From: an uncultured Myxococcales bacterium
Lineage (GTDB): Bacteria > Myxococcota_A > Bradymonadia > UBA7976 > UBA1532
Reading direction: 5' to 3'
DNA: 64,000 nucleotides
NCBI GenBank assembly: GCA_903847385.1
Contig: CAINDO010000261.1
Location: 108-64,107, forward strand
Shown: positions 51,135-64,000 of the stretch, in pieces
How the letters are laid out: each line of letters opens with the position of its first letter
Position numbering within the stretch: the first letter of the stretch is position 1
Notes under the pieces: model-generated
What the model was told of the DNA's origin: nothing
Seen by the model: only the letters and a program-made list of their open reading frames with translations
Database searches by the model: none
Program-made: the position numbers and the translations under genes

Positions 51135-51967
51135 ATGGACATTCGATTCTGGGGCGTTCGGGGCAGCATCGCGGTCAGCGGCCCGCGCTACACGCGGACC
51201 GGCGGCAACACCACCTGCGTCGAGCTCTCGCACGACGGGGCGCGCCTCATCCTGGACGGCGGGACCGGTCTGCGGGCGCTCGGGGAGAGCCTCGGCTTCG
51301 CCCCCCTGGAGGCGACGCTCCTGTTCACGCACCTGCACTGGGACCACATCCAGGGCGTGCCGTTCTTCGGCCCGGCGTTCCACCCGGAGTCCCGGTTGAC
51401 GCTGGCCGGTGTCCCCCGGGCGACGGGGACGGTGCGCGAGGCCCTGGCGGCGCAGATGCGGCCGCCGACCTTTCCCGTGACGCTCGACCGGCTGGTCGGC
51501 GCGCGGCGGTTCGTGGACGTGCCGCGCACGGGTCCGCTCGAGTTCGGGCCGTTCCGCGTCACGCCCCTGGAGCAGGACCACCCGGACGGGGTGGTGGCCT
51601 ACCGCATCGAGGCCGGCGGCCGCAGCGTCGTGTTCGCCACGGACTGCGAGCACCGCGAGGGCGCGGGCGAGGGCAGCGAGAGCGCCCGCGCCATGGCCAC
51701 CTTCGCCCGGGGCGCGGACGTGCTGATCCACGACGCGCAATACACCACGGACGAGTACTTCGGTCGCCGCGGCCCGCCCCGCCTGGGTTGGGGGCACTCC
51801 ACCGTGGACGACGCCGTCGCGATCGCGCGCCGTGCGGACTGCGGGCGCCTGGCGCTGTTCCACCACGATCCCGGCCGGGACGACGACGCCGTCGAGGCGC
51901 TCGAGCGGGTCGCGCGCGCGCACCTGCCCGGCGCCTTCGCCGCCCGCGAGGGCGAGGGGATGTCGCT

Positions 51968-51971
<4 letters not shown>
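51135..51971 (+). CDS. MBL-fold metallo-hydrolase (RNase Z / phosphodiesterase-like)
   Basis: FWGVRGS, GGNTTC, DGGTG, THLHWDHIQG, TDCEH, WGHS, FHHDP. Confidence 0.88.
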
Positions 51972-53518
<1,547 letters not shown>

Positions 53519-53605
53519 GGCGGCCGTGTCGGCTTTGCGTTGACTCCCGGTGTGAAATCGGTTGGAACGAGTATCCGTTCCGCATCGGGCTCGCGGGGAC
53601 CCGCA

Positions 53606-55705
53606 TTGAACAACGCCGGCCGCTTGTTTCTTCTGTCCGTCGTGCCGCTGGCCACAGCGTGCGCCGGACTGTTCTGGTTCTTCGTGGTGCGCTTCGAGAT
53701 CTCCGCCGAGCGCGCGATGGAGCGGCGCGCCGTCAGCACCGCCGAGGTCATCGCCCGGGCCGAGTCGCCGGCGCTCGTGTATGAAGACGTCCGCGAGGCC
53801 GACATGCAGCTCGGCACGATCCGGCAGTCGCCGGACGTCGCGTACGCCGTCGTGCTCCAGGCCAGCGGCCGCGTGCTGGCCGCGGTGGCGCCGGAGCGGC
53901 GACCCGAGGTGATCACCCGACCGGAGAACGGTCCCGAGCTGCGCTGGTCGCCCCATCTCCTCCACGTCACGGCCCCCATCGACATCCCCTCGGGTGAGAA
54001 GGGCACGCTGGCGATGGGGTTCACGCTCGACGAGTTCCACGCCGAGCGTCGGGCGACGATGATGGTGGCCGGCGCGGCGGTGGGCATGGTGCTGCTCGGC
54101 GGCGGCATCCTGAGCTGGCTCATGGCGCACTATCTGGCGCGCCGGCGCGCCGCCGAAGCGGCCCAACGGCGCTCCGAGGAGAGCTTTCGCGCGCTCATCG
54201 AGACGCTGCCGGACGCCATCCTCATCGAGCGCAACGGTGTGATCGTCTACTCGAATCCGGCCGCGGTCCGCTACCTGGCCGTGGCCCACGCGGACGAGAT
54301 TCACGGCCGCCCGGCGACGGAGTTGCTCGCCGTCGACACCCTGCAACGGGAGTCGCTTCGGCTGGAGCGCATTCACGAGGGCGGCAGCCCGCTGTATCTG
54401 CCGGAGGCGAAGCTGTTGCGGCGCGACGGCTCGTCCATGGCGGCCGAGGTGCTGGCGCTGCCGCTGGTGTTCGACGGTGCGCCGGCCGGCGTGCTCGTGG
54501 CCCGCGACCTCACCGAGCGGCGGCGCATTCAGGCGCAGCTCATCCACGCCGACCGGATGGCCTCGATGGGCACGATGGCCGCGGGCGTCGCCCACGAGAT
54601 CAACAATCCGCTCGCCTACGTGACGACGAACCTGACCTTCGCCCTCGACGCCGTGGAGCAGCAGAGCGGCGGCCCGGAGAACGATGAACTCCGGCAGGCG
54701 TTGTGCGAGGCGATGGAGGGCGCCGAGCGGGTCCGCCACATCGTTCAGAGCCTCAAGGCTTACTCCCGCGCGGAGGACGAGACGGTCGTCGCCGTCGACG
54801 TCGAGCGCGCGTTGGACGCCGCGATCAGCATCGCTCGGGCCGAGATGAAGCCCCGTGCCGAGCTGTTGCGCAATCGCGGGGACGTGCCCCCGGCCGCCGC
54901 CCAGGAGTCGAGGCTGGTCCAGGTCTTCGTGAACCTCCTGACCAACGCCGCCCAAGCCATCCCGGCGGGCGATCCGGCGAAGAACCTGATCGAGGTCTCG
55001 ACGACGCGGCTCGCCGACGGTCGGATCTGCGTCTCGGTGGCGGACTCGGGCGGTGGCATCTCGCCGGACCACCTGCCGCGGCTCTTCGACCCGTTCTTCA
55101 CGACAAAACCCGTGGGCGAGGGGACCGGCCTCGGTCTGTCGATCTGTCAGGGCATCATCCACGGCCTCGGGGGCGAGATCCGGGTGCAGAGTCGTGTCGG
55201 CGAGGGCAGCCGCTTCGAGGTGCTGCTGCGCACGAGCGAAGCGGCGCTTGCCGCGGGGCCGAGCCCGAGCCCTGCGCCGGTCACACCCGCGGCCCAGGTG
55301 CAGGCCCGCCCTCGGTTGCTGGTGGTCGACGACGAGGTCCGGATCGCCCAGTCCATCGGGCGGCTCTTCTCGCGCGAGCTGCGTGTCGTCTCGGAGCTCG
55401 ACGGGCGCCGCGCGCTCAACCGCCTCAAGGACGACCGCGACTTCGACGTGATCGTCTGCGACCTGATGATGCCGGAGATGAGCGGCATCGAGCTCTTCGA
55501 CGAGATACGCCGCCTTTCGCCTCGCCTGGCCCGTCGGGTGATCTTCCTGACCGGCGGGGCGTTCACGGCCGAAGCCAGCGCGTTCCTGGACTCCGTGCGC
55601 AACCCCGTCGTGGAGAAGCCCTTCGACGCCGCGCAGCTCCGCTCGGTGATCGACGATGTCCTGCGGCGCACGGGCGAACACGCGGCCCTGTCGCCGAAGA
55701 GCTGA
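53606..55705 (+). CDS. Membrane hybrid sensor histidine kinase (PAS-HisKA-HATPase-REC); start uncertain
   Basis: Two TM helices, [38 protein letters not shown]...DLMMP...KPF. Confidence 0.9.
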
Positions 55706-55714
55706 CGCCGGCGC

Positions 55715-57274
55715 TCAGGCGGCGCTTGCCCGTTCGCGGGCCGGCCGCGACGACTCCACCCACCGGACGCCGGCCGCCAGCAGCGCCTGCCGCAGCGCGG
55801 GTTCGGGCGGGGGGCCGAGGGACACGGCGACGACGCGCCGCTTGTGGGCCCGGCACAGCGCGAGGGTACGCACGGCCGGCCCGTCCGGCCGCAGACCGCT
55901 GAAGTCCGTGAGCAGCACCAGGGTCTCGGCGGCGCCGGCCACGAGGCTGCGCGACAGCGCCTGCGAGAGGCCCGTCTCCGCGGCGTCCGGAGCGGTCGCG
56001 CGGCGATAGGGCAGCGGGATCGCGTGGAGCGCGCAGTAGAGGCGCAAGCGGGCCGAGGCGAGGTCCGTGGCAGGGCGCGACTTGCCGAAGAGCGCGGCAT
56101 GGCCCCGGTCCCGCTCGCGCGCGACCACCTGGCTCACGTGGGTGAAGATCGCCGACTCGTCGTAGAGCTCGCGCACGGGATCGACGAGCACGTCCGCCTG
56201 GGACAACCGCGCCAGGTCGTAGGGCAGACGGCGCAGCGAGAGGCCCTCCTGCCGCTCCAGGAGTTCGCCCACGCGTGCGAACAGCTCGGCGTCCGAGATC
56301 TCGGTGAGGTCCGCGTCCACGACCCGCGTGACGTCCAGCAACTGCTGGAGCAGGCGCTGGGCGTGCGGTCGCCCCGTGTCCGGCCGGATGTGCGCGACGA
56401 CGCGATGGTCGTAGGTCGTGAGCCCCACCCGTTCGCCCGAGGCCAACTGCAGCAGGGCCGCCGCGAGGTCGATGCCGGCGTCCAGGGGGGTCTGCCCGGG
56501 CTCGCCGTCGCGCATCGTCCGGCCGATGGCCAGGACCACCTGGAAGCGCCGCATCGACTCGTCCTCGTTGGCGCGCACCAGCCAGCGCTGTCGACGGGCG
56601 GAGGCCTTCCAGGCGATGGCCTTCAGGGGGTCGCCCGGCACGTACTCGCGCAGCTCGCGCAGCTCCAACCCCGAGCCGCTCTGGCGGTCGAGGTGGCGGC
56701 CCTCGCGGTCTCGGACCGCGCCGATGCGGTTCAGGAGCGCGGCGGCCGTCGAGGCCGGCACCGGGCGCGGCCCGGCGTGGATGAGCAGGGGCAGGGGGTG
56801 CCACCGGGACTGCGTCGTCAGGCCCAGGGCATCGCCGAGGGTCAGGCGGCAGCCCCAGACGCGCCAGAGGCCCGCTCGCGGGAGTGTGAAGGTCACGGCG
56901 AACTCGCCCTGCGCCTGTCCCGGGGCGTCGAGCGTCAGGGCGTCGACGCCGACGGGCGAGGGCCCTGAGACGAGTGGCTCGACGCGAAGGCCACGGGCGT
57001 CGCCCCGGGCCTGCGTCCGGACCCGCAGCCCGAGTGTCGTCGGCTGCCCGCAGGCCTTCATCGGCACGGCCTCGGAGGCCCAGGACAGGTCGATGGCGTC
57101 GAGGCGATCCGAGGCCGCGCGTCCCCAGCCGAGCGCGAGCGTGGCCAGCCCCACCAGCGCGGCGCCGGCGGCGGCCACCCACGGCGCTCCGGCCGTGGCT
57201 GCGATGAAGAGGAGCGCCACCCCCGCCGCGACGACGGCGCGACCGCGCGCGTTCAGGGCGACGGGCGTGGACAC
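55715..57274 (-). CDS. DUF58 (VWA-like) protein
   Basis: ELREYVPGDPLKAIAWKASARR, VGLTTYD, LVLLTD; N-terminal TM pair. Confidence 0.85.
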   Translation of the reverse strand: MSTPVALNARGRAVVAAGVALLFIAATAGAPWVAAAGAALVGLATLALGWGRAASDRLDAIDLSWASEAVPMKACGQPTTLGLRVRTQARGDARGLRVEPLVSGPSPVGVDALTLDAPGQAQGEFAVTFTLPRAGLWRVWGCRLTLGDALGLTTQSRWHPLPLLIHAGPRPVPASTAAALLNRIGAVRDREGRHLDRQSGSGLELRELREYVPGDPLKAIAWKASARRQRWLVRANEDESMRRFQVVLAIGRTMRDGEPGQTPLDAGIDLAAALLQLASGERVGLTTYDHRVVAHIRPDTGRPHAQRLLQQLLDVTRVVDADLTEISDAELFARVGELLERQEGLSLRRLPYDLARLSQADVLVDPVRELYDESAIFTHVSQVVARERDRGHAALFGKSRPATDLASARLRLYCALHAIPLPYRRATAPDAAETGLSQALSRSLVAGAAETLVLLTDFSGLRPDGPAVRTLALCRAHKRRVVAVSLGPPPEPALRQALLAAGVRWVESSRPARERASAA

Positions 57275-57278
57275 GTTC

Positions 57279-58226
57279 TCAGCGGCTCCCGGGGCCGCGG
57301 AAGGGCACTGCGCGAAGGACCTCGGCGATGACGTCCTGGCCGGACAGGCCGTCCAGCTCCGCCTCGGGTGTGATGAGCAGCCGGTGGGCCAGCACCGGGC
57401 TCGCCAGACCGCGGACGTCGTCGGGCAGCACGAAGTCGCGCCCGGCCCAGAAGGCCATGGCCTTGGCGGCGCGCATCAGGCCGAGGCCCGCACGCGGGCT
57501 GGCGCCCAGACGAACACGCGGATGTTCGCGCGTGGCGGTCACGAGCGAGACGATGAAGTCCTTGATCTCGGGCGCCACGTGGAGTCGCGCGGCGGCGGCG
57601 CGGAGCGCGAGAATGCTCGCCGGATCCAGCACCCGGGGCACGGAGGGCACCGGCTGGTCGTACGTGTCCAGGATTCGGCGTTCGTCCGCGGTGCTCGGGT
57701 AGCCGATCTCGATCTTGAGCAGGAAACGGTCGACCTGCGCCTCGGGCAGGGGGTAGACCCCCTCCTGCTCGAGCGGGTTCTGCGTGGCCAGGACCAGAAA
57801 GGGGTCCGGCAGCGGCAGGGTGTCGCCCTCGATGGTGACCTGCTGCTCCTGCATCGCTTCCAGGAGCGCGGACTGCGTCTTGGCCGGGGCGCGGTTGATC
57901 TCGTCGCCGAGCACGACGTGCGCGAAGACGGGGCCGCGGCGCAGGACGAAGGCCTGGTCGCGCTGGTTGAGGATGTAGGCGCCGGTGATGTCGGCCGGGA
58001 GCATGTCCGGCGTGAACTGGATCCGCCGGAAGTCGCCGCCGAGCGTCGCCGTGAAGGCCCGCGCCAGCGTGGTCTTCGCCACGCCGGGCACGCCCTCGAG
58101 CAGCACGTGGCCGGGCGCGACCAGGGCCGTCAGCAGCAGGTCGAGCGTCTCGGGGGCGCCGATCCAGACCCGCGACAGCGCGTCGTGCACGTGGCGGCGG
58201 AGGGCGGGGGCGGAGAAGGTGCTCAT
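57279..58226 (-). CDS. moxR: MoxR-family AAA+ ATPase
   Basis: GHVLLEGVPGVAKT, RIQFTPDMLPADI, DEINRAPAKTQSALLEAMQE, ATQNPLEQEGVYPLPEAQVDRF. Confidence 0.93.
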   Translation of the reverse strand: MSTFSAPALRRHVHDALSRVWIGAPETLDLLLTALVAPGHVLLEGVPGVAKTTLARAFTATLGGDFRRIQFTPDMLPADITGAYILNQRDQAFVLRRGPVFAHVVLGDEINRAPAKTQSALLEAMQEQQVTIEGDTLPLPDPFLVLATQNPLEQEGVYPLPEAQVDRFLLKIEIGYPSTADERRILDTYDQPVPSVPRVLDPASILALRAAAARLHVAPEIKDFIVSLVTATREHPRVRLGASPRAGLGLMRAAKAMAFWAGRDFVLPDDVRGLASPVLAHRLLITPEAELDGLSGQDVIAEVLRAVPFRGPGSR

Positions 58227-59203
58227 CGGGGCTCGGTCCTCGAAGGGGGGGCGTTCGTGGGCGGGGGGGCGTCGGGCCGGGGCCGGGGGCCCGGGAACCG
58301 TGGGCCCGTGGGGCGCCGGCGGCTCCCCGCGCCGGGAAACACCGCCAGCGCGTAGATACATGTCGCGGCGAGCAGCAAGGCCACAAAAAAGCGCACGGCG
58401 GGGTCGTCGGGGCGGGCCGTCGAGAGCCGCGCGAGCCCGCGATTCAAGGTCGCGGCGCCCCCGAGCTTCTCGTCCGGCGGCGCGACGCCGGCGTAGTCGC
58501 CCTGCGTCGAATCCGCGCCGGCGAGCAGGTGCACCGGGCGGGTCCCGTCCTCGGCCAGCCAGGCCATGGCGTTGGCGGCGAAGCGCGCGTTCTCCGGGAC
58601 GGCCTGCATCAGGTTGATGAACAGGCTCGAGTCGGCGAGCACGAGGACCTCACCATTGCCCACGCTGAGCTGGAACGCGAAGGGTGCGCCGTCGGCGTAG
58701 CGCACGGCGGCGTCGAGCGGCGTCTCGGCGAACGCGCCGGGGTGGTTCGTGACGAGGCGCTCGACGCCATCGAACACGCCCGCCGTCGTCGGCGTCAGCA
58801 CCACGAAATCCGGATGGCCGGGCAGCGTGGTCTGCCCACTCCGCGGCGCCGGTGCGCTGCGCAAGCCGAGGCCGGCCCAAAGCTCGGCCGAGGCCTCGCC
58901 CTCGTCCGCGACGAGCAGGCGGCCGCCCTCGCGCACGAACCGGAGCAGCGGCTCCGCGGGCACGGGCCTCTCCGGGGCGATGACCGCCACGCCGGACTTC
59001 GGGCTGAGCGAAGCCAGATCCAGCGGTCCCGTCCGGACGTCGAGGCGCGCGCCGCGGCCCGCGCCGAGCCAGCGCGTCAGGCCCGTCCAGTCGGGGCTCT
59101 CCGTCTGTACGGCCTCGGCGACGGGGCCCTGCGCGACCGCGGTGCGTGGCCCGAGCAGCGCGAGACCGAGGGCGAGCGCGGTGATGCGCGACCGGCGCCT
59201 CAT
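58223..59203 (-). CDS. DUF4350-like exported protein with C-terminal TM helix
   Basis: Signal peptide; FVREGGRLLVADE, GEVLVLADSSLFIN, NARFA; TM near the C-terminus. Confidence 0.72.
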   Translation of the reverse strand: MRRRSRITALALGLALLGPRTAVAQGPVAEAVQTESPDWTGLTRWLGAGRGARLDVRTGPLDLASLSPKSGVAVIAPERPVPAEPLLRFVREGGRLLVADEGEASAELWAGLGLRSAPAPRSGQTTLPGHPDFVVLTPTTAGVFDGVERLVTNHPGAFAETPLDAAVRYADGAPFAFQLSVGNGEVLVLADSSLFINLMQAVPENARFAANAMAWLAEDGTRPVHLLAGADSTQGDYAGVAPPDEKLGGAATLNRGLARLSTARPDDPAVRFFVALLLAATCIYALAVFPGAGSRRRPTGPRFPGPRPRPDAPPPTNAPPSRTEPR

Positions 59204-60837
59204 CCGGCCCGCCCCCGTCGGAAGAGCTCGGTCAAGGCGGTGGCGTCGGCGTCAATTTCCAGAAGGAGCGAGACGGTCGGCTCGTCGGCCCCGAAACACC
59301 CGCTCTCGACGGCCTCCGTGAAGCGGTCGACCAGCGCGCTCGGCGCGCCGCGCCGGACGAGGTCGACCGCCGACTGTCCCGGCGTCTCGCGACCGAACTT
59401 CAGAACGGGGCGGCCGGCGGCGGCGAGGACCGCCTCGTGCCGCGCCTGGATGCGTGCCCGCGGTGTTTGCAAGTGAATCACGACATGGGCGCCCGGGGGC
59501 ACGTGGCACGCGTGCCCATCCGGGGCGAACCCCTCGGCCTCCGTCCAGATCCACTCGCCCGGACCCGCGAGCACTGCGCGGCCCTCGTCGTCCGTCTCGG
59601 TGACGGGCCCGGGGGATGGCGGGTTCATCAGGCTGGGGGCGGTCCCGCCCTGGAGAAGGCGGACTCGGGCCCGAATCGGTGCGCCCGTGGCCTCGGCCCG
59701 GACCTCGACACGCAGGAGGCCGTCGTCGACGGGGGGCGCGCGGCGCACGAAAGGCGGAGGCGGCGGCACGCGCGTCGGCACGGGTGAGGGCGCCAGCGGT
59801 CGGGGTCGGCGACGCCAGGCCGCGGCGAAGGCGGCGAGCGCGCCGACCGTCGCCGGCGCGATGAACCATGCGGGCGAGGGGGGCGGTGGCGGCACGACCT
59901 CGACGCGTTGGGCCGCCGAGAAAGCGGTGCGCAGCGACGGCTCCGTCGGGGCGACGAGCGCGCGGATCTCGAGCTTGCCGGCGGACAGGGTGTCCGCGGC
60001 CAGCGTGATGCTGAAGCGCCCCTGTTTGTCCGTGGTCGTGCCACCGACGGGGTCCCCCTCGGCCGTGAGGACGACCGGGAGCGCCTCGCCGGGGGCGCCC
60101 TCGACGCGACCCGAGGCCGTGAGCACCGCGCCCGGCTCCAGGCGGGGCGGGAGCGCATCGAGCGTCACCCGGGGGGTCACGCAGGCGGTGAGCGTCTGCT
60201 CCGCGCGGGCAGGCAGGTGGTCCTCGTCGCCGGCGAAGGTGACCACGAGCCGGTGGGGGCCGCGACCCAGATCCCGGGCCGTCAAGTGGATCTCGCCGTC
60301 CGCGTCCGTAGGCAGCGCGGACAGTTGCTGGGCGTCGAGGGCGACCTGCAGCGACAGCCCTGCGCGCGGTGTGCCCCGACGGTCGACGGCGCGCGCGCCC
60401 AGGTCCAGCGGCACGCCCGCCTCCGCGGCCTCCGGCGCCTGCAACTGCAGCTCGACCTCGGCGCGCCCGACGGTGACCTCGCCCTCGGCGGCGGCGGAGC
60501 CGAGCAACGCGCTGCCCGGGAACCGGACCCCGACCTTGTGCGCGCCGCTGCCCTGGGTCACGAGGGTCGCCCGGAAGTGACCCTGCGCGTCCGTCGTCGC
60601 CGAACGGGCGCTCTCGGCGCCCACCTGGATCTCGACCTCGGCGCCCGCGACCGGTTGGCCGAGGTTGTCGCGCAGGTTGCCCTCGACGTCGACCCGCAGG
60701 CCGCGCGTGACGGTGAGCAGCTCCGTCAGCGACGCGCGGGCCTTGACGACGATCTCCGGCTCGGCCGAGGCGGTGCGCGGCGGGCCCAGCCCGAGGACGA
60801 TCGCCAGAAAGGCGGTGAGAGCGGCGGAAAGTCGCAC
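59200..60837 (-). CDS. Type I membrane protein with Ig-like ectodomain repeats and a cytoplasmic C-terminal domain
   Basis: Signal peptide; repeated TTDxxGxF / VxFxG Ig-like units; TM AWFIAPATVGALAAFAAAW followed by RRRPR; about 200-aa tail. Confidence 0.72.
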   Translation of the reverse strand: MRLSAALTAFLAIVLGLGPPRTASAEPEIVVKARASLTELLTVTRGLRVDVEGNLRDNLGQPVAGAEVEIQVGAESARSATTDAQGHFRATLVTQGSGAHKVGVRFPGSALLGSAAAEGEVTVGRAEVELQLQAPEAAEAGVPLDLGARAVDRRGTPRAGLSLQVALDAQQLSALPTDADGEIHLTARDLGRGPHRLVVTFAGDEDHLPARAEQTLTACVTPRVTLDALPPRLEPGAVLTASGRVEGAPGEALPVVLTAEGDPVGGTTTDKQGRFSITLAADTLSAGKLEIRALVAPTEPSLRTAFSAAQRVEVVPPPPPSPAWFIAPATVGALAAFAAAWRRRPRPLAPSPVPTRVPPPPPFVRRAPPVDDGLLRVEVRAEATGAPIRARVRLLQGGTAPSLMNPPSPGPVTETDDEGRAVLAGPGEWIWTEAEGFAPDGHACHVPPGAHVVIHLQTPRARIQARHEAVLAAAGRPVLKFGRETPGQSAVDLVRRGAPSALVDRFTEAVESGCFGADEPTVSLLLEIDADATALTELFRRGRAG

Positions 60838-60921
60838 CGGCGCAGCCTACCGTGGGCGCCCCTCGCGGTCACGCTTGACGGTCGCGCCCCGTGCGAACGA
60901 CGCTCGGCACGGAGGCACGCC

Positions 60922-61710
60922 GTGCTGCGATACATCGGGTCCGCCAGTGGCGCATGGGCGCTCGTCTTTGCGTTCGCCGCGGCGGTCGCCGGGCTCGGGC
61001 CGCCCCCGATCGTCGGGTTCCTGGTCGCGTATGCCGGTGTGGCAGGCGCGACGCTCGTCGCCGGTGCGCTCGCCGGACGTTCGAGCGCCGGTCGCCGCGG
61101 CCTTCTGCCCTTTGCCGGGGCGGGCATCGCGACGGTCGCGCTGGCGGGATACCTGCCCGCCGACGCCTGGGGCGCGCTGCTCCACGGCGGCGCGCTGCTC
61201 GTCGCTGCGTGCGGGGTGGGGGGCCTCCTCGGGCGCGAGGTCGTCGACCCCCGACACCTGTGGCCCCTGGTGATCGTGGGCGCGTCGGCGGACCTCTGGA
61301 GCGTGACGGCCCCCGAGGGCCTGACCCGCAGCCTGCTCGAGGGCGAGGGGCCGGTCGCGCTCGCGGCCGTCGTGCTGCACCTGCCCGTATTCGACGGCGA
61401 GTCGGTCGCGCCCGCCCCGATCCTCGGCGTCGGCGACCTGCTGTTCACTGCGTTCCTGCTCGGCGCGGCGGCGCGCCTCGGGCTCTCGCCGCGGCGGTCC
61501 CTCGGCGGCCTGCTGGTCGGGTTCGGGCTGTGCCTGGCCGGCCTGCTCGTGCTGCAGGTGCCGCTGCCGGCGCTGCCATTCATCGCGCTGTGTTTTGCCG
61601 CGGCGCACGGGGCCGCCGTGCGACCGCGCCGGGCGGAGCTGGCGATGGCCGTCGGTTTTGCGCTCGTCCTCGCCGCCGCCGGGGGCCTGTTCGCGCGCAT
61701 CGGGGCCTGA
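60922..61710 (+). CDS. Polytopic membrane protein with presenilin/SPP (GxGD) aspartyl protease motifs
   Basis: About 9 hydrophobic segments; SADLWSVTAPEG, ILGVGDLLF, PLPALPF in the correct order; start position approximate. Confidence 0.72.
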   Translation: MLRYIGSASGAWALVFAFAAAVAGLGPPPIVGFLVAYAGVAGATLVAGALAGRSSAGRRGLLPFAGAGIATVALAGYLPADAWGALLHGGALLVAACGVGGLLGREVVDPRHLWPLVIVGASADLWSVTAPEGLTRSLLEGEGPVALAAVVLHLPVFDGESVAPAPILGVGDLLFTAFLLGAAARLGLSPRRSLGGLLVGFGLCLAGLLVLQVPLPALPFIALCFAAAHGAAVRPRRAELAMAVGFALVLAAAGGLFARIGA

Positions 61711-61787: not shown

Positions 61788-64000
61788 ATGAAGCTCAAGC
61801 GCCTCGACATTCACGGCTTCAAGTCGTTCTACCACCGCACGACGGTGGTGTTCGACGATGGGATCACGGCCGTGGTCGGCCCGAACGGGTGCGGCAAGTC
61901 CAACATCGTGGACTCGTTGAAGTGGGTCATGGGCGAGCAGGGCGCCAAGGCGCTCCGCGGCGGCTCCATGGAGGACGTCATCTTCAACGGCACCGGCCAG
62001 CGCGGCCCCATGGGCATGTGCGAGGTGCGCCTGACGTACGTGAACGACGGCTCCACCGAGGTGCCCGCGCGTTGGAAGGACGTCGAGGAGATCGCGATCG
62101 AGCGCCGCATGGAGCGCTCCGGCGGCTCGGATTACTTCATCAACAAGGTCCGGGTGCGCCTTCAGGACGTCCACGACCTGCTCTCGGGCATGGGCGTGGG
62201 CGGTCAGCGCGCCTACGCGATCATCGAGCAGGGGCAGATCGGCCGCATCGTCAGCGCACGCCCGGAAGAGCGCCGCACGATCATCGAAGAGGCCGCCGGC
62301 ATCACGCGCTACCGGGTCCGCAAGAAGGTCGCCGAGCGGAAGATGGAGGAGACGCGGCTGAATCTGGAGCGCGTCGCCGACATCATCGGCGAGGTCGACG
62401 GGCAGCTGAAGTCGCTGCGACGTCAGGCGAAGAAAGCCGAGCGTTACAAAGAGTACCGCGTCGAGGCGCGCCACCTTCAGCTCAAGGCCGCGGTCTGGGA
62501 GTACCACCACCTGCAGGCGGACCACGCCGGCCTGATCGCGCGGGTCGAGTCCCTGGCCGCCGGCGAGGGGGACGCGATCCGCGCGCTCGAGACGGCCGAG
62601 GCCCACCGGGCGGCGGTCAAGCTCGAAGAGCAGGGGACGGAGTCGCGCGCACGCGCCCTCGCCGGACAGTTGGCCGGCGCCGAGAACGACGTTCGCCTGG
62701 CCGAGGGTCAGCTCGAACTGCTCGGCCGTGAGGCACAGGGCACGCGCCAGCGCCTGGAGACGGCGCGCGTCGAGCGCGGGCGCGCCGCCGAGCGCATCGC
62801 CGAGCTGACGGCGGAGCGCGAAGAGGCCGAGGCGCGCGTCGCCTCTCTGGACGAGGAGGCCTCGGGAGACGCCTCGGATCTCCCGCGCCTCGACGCCGAA
62901 CTCCAGGGGGTCCAGACGGAGCTGAGGGCGGCGCGCGACGCCTCGGAGCAGCACAAACGCGCCGCGTCCGAGGCCGCGCAGATGATCGTCCGCGCCCGCG
63001 CCGTGCGCGACGCGGCCTCGCGGCGTGAGCAGGAGCTCCTGGCCCGCGCCGTGTCCGCTCAGGACGAGGTCGAGTCGCTGATTGCCCAGCGCGACGTCCT
63101 CGCGCGCCAGCTCCGCGAGTCACAGGACCGCTTGCGGCAGGCGGACGAGCAGGTCGAAACGGCCCGCACGGAGCGCGATGCGGCCGAGGCGACGCGCCTC
63201 GCGGCCGAGGGCGAGGCCCGCGCGGGTGAGGACCGCGAACGGCGCGCAAGGGAGCACCTGGCCGGCACGCGCAGCCGCCTGCGCAGCCTGGAGGAGCTCG
63301 AGGCCCGGCGCGAGGGCGTCGGCGAGGGGCCGCGCGCCGTCCTCGCCCGCGGCGCCGAGGCCGGTGTGCTCGGCCTCGTCTCGGAGAACCTGTCCCCGCC
63401 CGCCGAGCTCGAGAAGGCCGTCGCCGCCGCGCTCGGGCCCCGCCTGCAGGCCGTCGTCGTCACGGACCTGGGCCGCGCGGGTGCGGCCGCGGACCTGCTG
63501 CGCGGGCAAGGGCGCGGGCGCGGTACCTTCGTATCCGCCCAGGCGGAGCCCTTGCCGGTCCCCGTGGCGCCGGTGCGGCCGGGTGTGCGGGGTCGGCTCG
63601 TCGATCTGCTCGGCGCGCAGGGCCTGCCCGCGGTGCTCGTCGGCGACGCGCTGCTCGTCGAGGATCTGGCCGTGGCGCTGGAGATCGCGCGGGAGGGCGC
63701 CTGGCCCGGCTGCGTGGTCACGCTCGAGGGCGACCGGGTGGACGCGCCGGCCTGGGTGACGGGCGGCCACGGCGGCGCGGACGCGGCCCCGCTCAGCCGA
63801 CGCCGCGAGATCCGCGAGCTCACCGCCGCTGCGACCACACTCGAGGCCGAGGCCGCCGAGGGTCAGGCCGCAGCCCAGGCGCAGCGCGCCCTCGCCGCCG
63901 ACGCCCGCGCCCGCCGCGAGACCGCCGCCCGGGCCCTGCAGGATGGTGAGATCCGCCGCGCCGAGGCCCGCAAGGACGCTGCCCGCTACGAGGCCGATCT
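61788..64000 (+). CDS. smc: Chromosome segregation protein SMC (5' part; runs off the window)
   Basis: MKLKRLDIHGFKSF, VGPNGCGKSNI, LRGGSMEDVIFNG, IIEQGQI, EEAAGI, coiled coil and hinge GRGTF. Confidence 0.96.
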   Translation, partial: MKLKRLDIHGFKSFYHRTTVVFDDGITAVVGPNGCGKSNIVDSLKWVMGEQGAKALRGGSMEDVIFNGTGQRGPMGMCEVRLTYVNDGSTEVPARWKDVEEIAIERRMERSGGSDYFINKVRVRLQDVHDLLSGMGVGGQRAYAIIEQGQIGRIVSARPEERRTIIEEAAGITRYRVRKKVAERKMEETRLNLERVADIIGEVDGQLKSLRRQAKKAERYKEYRVEARHLQLKAAVWEYHHLQADHAGLIARVESLAAGEGDAIRALETAEAHRAAVKLEEQGTESRARALAGQLAGAENDVRLAEGQLELLGREAQGTRQRLETARVERGRAAERIAELTAEREEAEARVASLDEEASGDASDLPRLDAELQGVQTELRAARDASEQHKRAASEAAQMIVRARAVRDAASRREQELLARAVSAQDEVESLIAQRDVLARQLRESQDRLRQADEQVETARTERDAAEATRLAAEGEARAGEDRERRAREHLAGTRSRLRSLEELEARREGVGEGPRAVLARGAEAGVLGLVSENLSPPAELEKAVAAALGPRLQAVVVTDLGRAGAAADLLRGQGRGRGTFVSAQAEPLPVPVAPVRPGVRGRLVDLLGAQGLPAVLVGDALLVEDLAVALEIAREGAWPGCVVTLEGDRVDAPAWVTGGHGGADAAPLSRRREIRELTAAATTLEAEAAEGQAAAQAQRALAADARARRETAARALQDGEIRRAEARKDAARYEAD

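Follow-up and report, generated by a model that had tools for sequence, protein, structure and literature searches.

The question raised by this locus is whether a bacterium can encode an intramembrane aspartyl protease of the presenilin and signal peptide peptidase (SPP) type, the A22 family of MEROPS. The gene concerned lies towards the 3' end of a 64,000-nucleotide stretch of contig CAINDO010000261.1 from an uncultured Myxococcales bacterium (the whole of this stretch is called the window below), and encodes a protein of 262 amino acids (aa) in which an original prediction, made from the sequence alone, recognised three presenilin-like motifs and from them proposed an active gamma-secretase-like protease. 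Proteases of the presenilin/SPP type have a central part in eukaryotic signalling and in Alzheimer's disease, and mechanistic work on them leans heavily on one archaeal homologue, PSH. The comparisons reported here indicate that the bacterial protein and its homologues form a family whose relationship to presenilin and SPP is distant but very probable. They also make it likely that the protein is an active, stand-alone intramembrane aspartyl protease with GxGD and PAL motifs, belonging to a divergent bacterial branch of presenilin/SPP, with its core in the SPP-type orientation and on a rearranged helix scaffold.

Motifs and their conservation in the family

The three motifs occur exactly at the positions first proposed for them, with the codon of the first candidate catalytic aspartate, D124, followed by LGVGDLLF (61423-61446) and LPALP (from 61564). 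The segment containing D124, ADLWSVTAPEGLTR, conforms to the pattern A-D-L-W-S-V-x-x-P-x-G, in which the Pro (D+7) and the Gly (D+9) are spaced from the aspartate as they are in presenilin (D-L-V-A-V-L-C-P-K-G); the residue preceding D124 is Ala and not the Tyr of a YD-type motif. The presenilin strings YDLVAVLCPKGPLR, LGLGDFIF and LPALP are all present in the HMMER alignments to the chains of presenilin-1 and presenilin-2 (PS1 and PS2). In alignment coordinates, D172 of the GVGD motif and P216 of the PAL motif are 44 residues apart, compared with 48 between D385 and P433 of PS1.

Homologues of the protein are numerous. A word-indexed search returned 17, none of which carries a precomputed Pfam domain, and an exhaustive phmmer comparison with 1.84 billion cluster representatives gave 312 matches (clusters at 50% identity) at E<=1e-3, 100 of them at E<=1e-10 and 15 at E<=1e-30, with most of the matched members being 240-290 aa long. 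When the word-indexed search was made with a profile of 129 members, 13 known members were recovered and no bridge to annotated families was found. Among the longer members (308-583 aa) no informative fused domain was seen with Pfam, the only matches being sub-threshold ones to HisKA_7TM (E 9e-4) and PGPGW (2e-4). Four of these proteins, P0084 (583 aa), P0103 (428 aa), P0110 (383 aa) and P0170 (450 aa), have long additional membrane regions at the N- or C-terminus, and the longer members may be either true fusions or artefacts of gene calling.

Conservation was counted in a MAFFT alignment of 165 sequences, with non-gap rows as denominators. Asp occupies position 124 in 159 of 161 sequences, G169 and D172 are each kept in 163 of 164, P216 is kept in 161 of 163 and L218 in 159 of 163, while A217 is found in 134; around the first aspartate, S127 occurs in 160, G133 in 155 and P131 in 106. 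The seven motif positions are all invariant in the 17 closest homologues. Both aspartates, the context of the GxGD motif and the PAL motif are thus nearly invariant in a polytopic protein, as would be expected if the original prediction were correct, and the two aspartates themselves are kept in ~98-99% of the homologues. Retention of both aspartates together with Gly169 and Pro216/Leu218 across diverged homologues is what a catalytic site would be expected to show, and catalytic activity is suggested by this conservation of residues.

The same counts bear on a different explanation, in which the family is a true homologue with the presenilin/SPP fold that has some other role, for example as a membrane scaffold, as a leak channel or as a protein facing the lipid, its motifs having been kept for structural reasons. 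The second Gly of GxGD, G171, is present in only 132 of the 165 sequences and is replaced by Ala, Thr or Ser in the other 33, which speaks for a non-proteolytic function, as do the altered architecture relative to solved A22 enzymes and the lack of any substrate-like partner gene conserved across the family, both of which are described below. Pseudoproteases, however, usually lose their catalytic residues, and near-complete retention of both aspartates, of Gly169 and of Pro216/Leu218 in 165 homologues counts against such a function, so that a homologue without proteolytic activity is considered unlikely.

Relationship to known protease families

Searches with single sequences and with profiles of increasing depth converge on the A22 proteins. 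When the protein alone was compared by phmmer with sequences from the Protein Data Bank (PDB), the C-terminal fragment of PS1 was matched at E=0.081 and an unrelated cytochrome c6 at 0.66. With a 17-sequence profile, nine matches were obtained at E<=10, all of them to presenilin-1/2 or SPPL2a and the best at 4.5e-5. The 129-sequence profile, searched against 177,635 distinct PDB sequences, again gave nine matches, now at E<=1, and all to presenilin-1/2 or SPPL2a; the best E-values were 1.3e-5 for PS1 (C-terminal fragment), 1.8e-5 for PS2 and 4.7e-5 for SPPL2a. In the profile alignments GxGD falls on GLGD and PAL on PAL, and the segment of the first aspartate falls on presenilin Y-D-L-V-A-V-L-C-P-K-G with Asp, Pro and Gly in register, this last part being a weak match (2.7-5.7 bits in HMMER).

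A scan of the 129 members, one by one, with Pfam points in the same direction. Presenilin (PF01080) is touched by 21 of them (best 1.8e-5) and Peptidase_A22B (PF04258) by eight (best 6.1e-4), and every family outside these two was matched by a single member only; among the NCBIfam models, none matches more than one of the 129 members. Across the whole 9.5-Mb genome, the Pfam Presenilin model at E<=10 touches only the stretch from GxGD to PAL of this protein, with a weak score of 8.4 bits.

In bacteria, the usual GxGD enzymes are the prepilin and preflagellin peptidases of family A24, and a divergent member of that family would be a bacterial polytopic membrane protein with a GxGD motif, as is found here. 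The A24 model PF01478 matched none of the 129 members at E<=0.1, and hhalign gave a probability of 0.1% when the family profile was compared with one of the genome's own A24 proteins; PF01478 exceeds its cut-off at three places in the genome, all elsewhere. A24 enzymes are not known to carry the PAL motif, which is conserved in the present family, and have their aspartates in or near cytoplasmic loops, and no pilin or secretion genes adjoin the gene. An A24 identity is effectively refuted by these results. The original prediction had itself named best matches to A24 or to non-protease families as a way in which it could fail; the profile and fold matches are to A22 proteins.

Predicted structure and fold comparison

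Two AlphaFold2 runs were made, from alignments of 17 (model 1) and 129 sequences (model 2), giving a predicted local distance difference test (pLDDT) score of 89.5 and a predicted template modelling (pTM) score of 0.88 for model 1, and a pLDDT of 94.4 and a pTM of 0.91 for model 2. Both models have nine helices (residues 2-24, 29-52, 58-75, 82-104, 110-129 with D124, 170-186, 190-211, 218-233 and 237-261). The loop between the helices of D124 and GxGD contains two short helices and a beta-hairpin that runs directly into G169-x-G-D172 in both models, and P216-A-L218 leads into helix 218-233, which is separated from the GxGD helix by a single helix (190-211). D124 and D172 are each placed 2-5 residues from the same, loop-side ends of adjacent helices, which is the one indication that their carboxylates may face each other in the membrane.

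Comparison of the models with the PDB by Foldseek placed SPPL2a (9k92) first for both, with E-values of 4.3e-3 and 3.9e-3, a probability of 1.00 and a template modelling score (TM-score) of 0.40. The first eight matches of model 1 and the first nine of model 2 are without exception SPPL2a or presenilin-1 chains; for model 2 these A22 matches have probabilities of 0.84-1.00 and the PS1 chains take ranks 3-9. Membrane proteins outside A22, including transporters, reach a probability of 0.15 or less. Superposition of local cores on the A22 structures gave deviations of 2.4-6.7 A overall, for example 2.4 A over 65 columns with 31% identity for the C-terminal fragment of PS2 and 4.2 A over 151 columns for PS1 (model 1).

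Membrane topology and orientation of the core

Topology was predicted with the positive-inside rule from the mean number of Lys and Arg residues per loop over the 129 members. The means are 1.27 for the N-terminus and 0.60, 2.09, 0.56, 1.43, 1.23, 2.65, 0.53 and 3.75 for the successive loops from helices 1-2 to helices 8-9, and the loop between the two aspartates (helices 5-6) has 39 residues and is acidic, with a mean net charge of -1.26. The topology prediction that had been proposed as a check describes a polytopic protein of nine helices in which loop charges alternate. The N-terminus is predicted to be cytoplasmic and the hairpin-containing loop between the aspartates periplasmic, the D124 helix would run from inside to outside and the GxGD helix from outside to inside, PAL would begin helix 8 on the periplasmic side, and the extra helix after the PAL helix would place the C-terminus outside.

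In presenilin the loop between the aspartate helices is cytosolic and type I substrates are cut, whereas SPP and its relatives (SPPL) have an inverted core and cut type II substrates. Read against these orientations, the loop charges suggest that the catalytic core of the bacterial protein is in the SPP orientation, inverted relative to presenilin, and so combines presenilin-like motif details with an SPP-like orientation. Such an orientation and scaffold fit SPPL2a as the best fold match. The description of the protein as gamma-secretase-like is consequently not the most apt one: the profile and fold matches place it with the presenilin/SPP relatives, but the loop between the aspartates lies, by prediction, outside the cytoplasm as in SPP, and the helix count around the catalytic core is unlike that of all solved A22 enzymes.

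Weighing of the assignment

A number of results weigh against reading the protein as a presenilin/SPP protease. At the level of family models, the 262-aa protein stays below the cut-off of every Pfam and NCBIfam model; Presenilin (PF01080) is matched by the single sequence only at E=7, with 5.7 bits against a cut-off of 34.3, no NCBIfam model matches it at all, and neither PF04258 nor the archaeal model PF06550 gives a match to it. The significant sequence match of the family profile spans only ~53 residues, from GxGD to PAL. PF06550 has no match in the genome at E<=1 or among the 129 members, and at E<=0.001 it is also without a match in the 301 genomes sampled from the phylum, a search in which Haloferax and Methanosarcina controls were positive, indicating that the family is not simply the archaeal PSH transferred into bacteria. 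At the level of structure, no Foldseek match has E<=0.001 (the best being 3.9e-3), the global TM-scores are 0.36-0.44 with a root-mean-square deviation of ~15 A over full-length alignments, and the predicted helices are arranged as 4+2+3, as opposed to the 5+2+2 of solved A22 enzymes: four helices and not five precede the helix of the first aspartate, the aspartates are on helices 5 and 6 and not 6 and 7, and there is one additional helix after the PAL helix. The low global TM-scores are probably due to this rearranged scaffold. The comparison with presenilin and PSH structures that the original prediction had called for accordingly gave a divided answer, since SPPL2a and PS1 head the list for both models, but the archaeal PSH (4hyg, chain 4hyg_C) was met only at rank 13 for model 1 (E 0.95, probability 0.30) and was outside the top 50 for model 2.

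The motifs by themselves also carry little weight. Translation of the organism's own genome in six frames gives 30,029 open frames of 150 aa or more, and in 118 of these GxGD is followed after 35-55 residues by PAL, so that the bare motifs are common by chance. The longer pattern D-x6-P-x-G...GxGD...PAL occurs in six open frames, of which only the one described here encodes a hydrophobic protein, the other five being Arg-rich off-frame junk. Because the bare motifs are within chance expectation, the case for a presenilin/SPP relative rests on conservation among homologues and on the profile and fold matches.

Taken together with the failure of all curated family models, the lack of a Foldseek match at E<=0.001 and global TM-scores of about 0.4, the chance frequency of GxGD...PAL could be understood if an unrelated nine-helix membrane protein, for example a transporter, had acquired the motifs by convergence or accident in a high-GC proteome rich in Gly, Ala, Leu and Pro. 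Such a protein would not be expected to match only A22 proteins at E<=1 in the PDB sequence set with all motifs in register, to belong to a family in which the A22 Pfam families are the sole ones matched by more than one member, to reproduce the presenilin Pro/Gly spacing after the first aspartate, or to yield two models whose top eight or nine fold matches are all A22 proteins, with probabilities of up to 1.00 against 0.15 or less for transporters. Convergence or chance is therefore regarded as quite improbable. The motif-level definition of A22 applies to the protein, but the curated thresholds are failed and the folds are matched in part, and a presenilin/SPP-type protease of this kind is accordingly best described as a divergent (A22-like, in MEROPS terms) and not a plain A22 member.

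Gene structure and annotated features

The list of open reading frames (ORFs) contains an ORF of 600 aa (59908-61710, forward strand), in the 3' part of which the gene is hidden. The real gene runs from a GTG start to a TGA stop, and the claim that it is concealed behind a spurious extension of about 340 aa is borne out: the extension amounts to 338 codons, is antisense to a real gene and has an odd GC pattern (Table 1). GC content at the first, second and third codon positions is 0.92/0.57/0.79 in the extension and 0.83/0.57/0.91 in 60922-61707, the latter being the normal coding pattern for a genome of 71% GC, and Arg makes up 19% of the residues of the extension versus 5% of those of the gene. 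The protein itself is composed to 74% of Ala, Ile, Leu, Val, Phe, Gly, Met and Trp, and its N-terminus, MLRYIG, is shared with close homologues. The normal coding GC pattern from the GTG onwards, the Shine-Dalgarno-like sequence in front of it and the starts of the homologues together define the limits of the gene as given in Table 1.

Table 1. Coordinates of the presenilin/SPP-like gene, its motifs and neighbouring features in the window (GC3, GC content at third codon positions; TM, transmembrane).
Feature	Position	Strand	Basis or remark
DUF58/VWA protein gene	55715-57274	-	Pfam; same operon as the 545-aa protein gene
MoxR AAA_3 ATPase gene	57279-58361	-	Pfam; same operon
DUF4350 protein gene	58223-59203	-	Pfam; same operon
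Gene of 545-aa divergent neighbour	59200-60837	-	Signal peptide, Ig-like/CarboxypepD_reg domains, one TM segment, C-terminal domain (Pfam)
Spurious 338-codon 5' extension	59908-60921	+	Antisense to real gene 59200-60837 (-)
Shine-Dalgarno-like GGAGG	60911-60915	+	6 nt 5' of GTG, read from sequence
Presenilin/SPP-like membrane protein gene	60922-61710	+	Translation; GC3 0.91; homologues without internal stops in 20/41 related genomes
D124, first candidate catalytic Asp	61291-61293	+	In predicted helix 5 (residues 110-129)
Predicted beta-hairpin (residues 151-157, 162-169) ending at GxGD	61372-61428	+	DSSP, both AlphaFold models
GVGD (G169-D172), start of helix 6	61426-61437	+	Aligned to PS1 G382-L-G-D385
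PAL (P216-A217-L218), start of helix 8	61567-61575	+	Aligned to presenilin PAL
smc, N-terminal part	61788-63998	+	Pfam SMC_N, SMC_hinge; 77 nt after the stop; runs off the window

Distribution and genomic context

A narrow profile of the family finds one copy each in 20 of 41 related genomes, including 19 of the 24 that belong to the same taxonomic family, and none in 16 genomes of other families in the order or class. A broad profile gives matches at E<=1e-3 in 23 genomes out of the 301 sampled from the phylum; 20 of these matches are full-length and strong, and three, short and near 5e-4, were discounted. The named records with related loci are metagenome-assembled genomes from Myxococcota, Bradymonadia (three), Sandaracinaceae, Polyangiales and one Pseudomonadota. 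The distribution is therefore patchy (20 of the 301 phylum genomes sampled), and the genome, in which other membrane proteases including A24 enzymes are plentiful, already contains genes of the S49 SppA type (five domain matches at three loci) and of the M50 site-2 protease (S2P) type (10 domain matches). The SppA-type and S2P genes, together with the patchy distribution, speak against an indispensable general role in clearing signal peptides and for a more specialised one.

Upstream of the gene, and divergent from it, is a four-gene operon (55715-60837, reverse strand) in which the gene of the 545-aa protein comes first. The C-terminal 70 residues of that protein resemble by eye the DUF4129 pattern, with no Pfam hit; this pattern often accompanies MoxR operons. 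The order DUF58, MoxR, DUF4350 and Ig-like/TM protein on one side of the presenilin-like gene, with smc on the other, is kept at six of 19 loci, and the presenilin-like gene followed by smc is found alone at two more, L015 and L052, whose statistics do not differ and which probably represent a single contig. The remaining 11 of the 19 loci, among them two within the taxonomic family of this genome, show neither the full order nor the pair with smc. Neighbours at distant loci were counted only where a Pfam match was clear. Adjacency to the operon and to smc is conserved only inside one Myxococcota family, and since it is limited to close relatives and other neighbours vary, no functional link was drawn from the context, and the neighbouring type I membrane protein of 545 aa is not put forward as a partner or substrate.

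Individual loci provide further observations on the neighbourhood. At two loci belonging to other lineages of Myxococcota, L017 (34-1692, reverse strand) and L046 (9174-10874, forward strand), a gene for an FHA-domain sigma-54 enhancer-binding protein divergently adjoins the presenilin-like gene; the two genomes may be related, so that the pairing could reflect synteny rather than a functional link. In a single case within the same taxonomic family (L049, 6458-7969, reverse strand), ftsY, encoding the signal recognition particle receptor, begins ~59 nt after the presenilin-like gene on the same strand, and at another locus a pair of AAA and VWA_CoxE genes is found near the presenilin-like gene. 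Next to the operon in the window, a 1360-aa ORF (51599-55681, reverse strand) has no Pfam match, a GC3 of 0.77 and a non-coding GC pattern, and the overlapping ORF at 53540-55705 (forward strand), with a GC3 of 0.91, is probably a real gene, convergent with the MoxR operon.

Comparison with characterised proteases and proposed mechanism

Among the named systems, SPP and SPPL (MEROPS A22B, PF04258; human SPPL2a, PDB 9k92/9k93) share with the bacterial family the order of motifs from the Asp helix through GxGD to PAL and the single helix between the GxGD and PAL helices, and the predicted orientation of the bacterial core agrees with that of SPP. The bacterial family differs from SPP in the absence of the first helix, in one more helix after the PAL helix and in the predicted location of the N-terminus inside; it has no PA domain, and its matches to PF04258 are below the cut-off. 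Like SPP, it is presumably cofactor-independent. Presenilin-1/2 (MEROPS A22A, PF01080; PDB 5a63, 7y5x and 2kr6) provide the best sequence-profile matches and the Pfam family most often touched by bacterial members, and share the motif details D-L-x-x-V-x-x-P-x-G, L-G-x-G-D-(L/F) and (L)-P-A-L-P. In contrast to presenilin, the bacterial protein has 262 aa instead of about 450-467, its predicted orientation is opposite, and it lacks both a long cytosolic loop and any sign of endoproteolysis. The gamma-secretase partners nicastrin, APH-1 and PEN-2 are not expected in bacteria, and no search was made for them.

The archaeal PSH/MCMJR1 (PF06550; PDB 4hyg) is likewise prokaryotic, stand-alone and of similar size, and carries the same three motifs, but its Pfam model matches none of the bacterial members and its Foldseek match is weak. 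The A24 prepilin/preflagellin peptidases, such as FlaK (PF01478), are also bacterial or archaeal polytopic GxGD aspartyl proteases, but they show no detectable profile similarity to the family.

By analogy with solved A22 enzymes, D124 in helix 5 and D172 at the start of helix 6 would lie at similar depth near the periplasmic face of the membrane and activate a water molecule, and the beta-hairpin running into GxGD, together with PAL at the start of helix 8, may shape a site at which the substrate docks. Substrates with N-in (type II-oriented) transmembrane helices would be expected from an SPP-type core orientation, and these could be remnant signal peptides or signal-anchored proteins.

Bacterial relatives and significance

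No characterised bacterial A22 enzyme was found in the searchable full text, and phylogenetic work outside it may describe bacterial relatives. The phrases "bacterial presenilin", "prokaryotic presenilin" and "presenilin homologs in bacteria" were in none of the papers among the matches listed. The paper on MCMJR1 (PMC2947513) presents A22 as a family of eukaryotes and archaea, as do two reviews (PMC9263693 and PMC7593790). For characterised enzymes in the searchable literature this view, which was also that of the original prediction, holds; for sequences it may be too narrow, as a cluster in the ESM Atlas that bears PF04258 is 61% bacterial. This cluster, labelled as signal peptide peptidase domain-containing and with PF04258 on 24% of its members, was found at rank 28 with a score of 0.87, and is to be read as a lead only; the nearest clusters (scores of 0.95-0.96) consist of hypothetical proteins, with Armatimonadota as their most frequent source.

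There is also a gap in annotation. The family, with its 312 matching clusters, is unannotated, and among the 25 members listed across 10 clusters, source names are given for four, every one of which is "hypothetical protein"; two of the four are NCBI records, from Polyangiaceae and Candidatus Ozemobacteraceae. A broader reading, which is put forward tentatively and considered doubtful at present, is that the family is one clade of a large bacterial presenilin/SPP branch unseen by family models and distinguished by presenilin-like motifs, an SPP orientation and the 4+2+3 scaffold. The role of such a branch would be regulated intramembrane proteolysis of membrane proteins with an N-in orientation, for example signal-anchored regulators, and not bulk clearance of signal peptides. 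Presenilin-type di-aspartyl proteolysis within the membrane would then be native to Bacteria, instead of having been invented by archaea and eukaryotes.

If the protein is indeed a divergent presenilin/SPP protease, it would offer a new and tractable model enzyme from bacteria, which at 262 aa is small, would need no cofactors, is predicted to have the SPP-type orientation and is built on a different helix scaffold. The family would represent a fourth class of bacterial intramembrane protease, beside S2P, rhomboid and A24 enzymes, and its existence would bear on the time at which the GxGD/PAL catalytic core originated.

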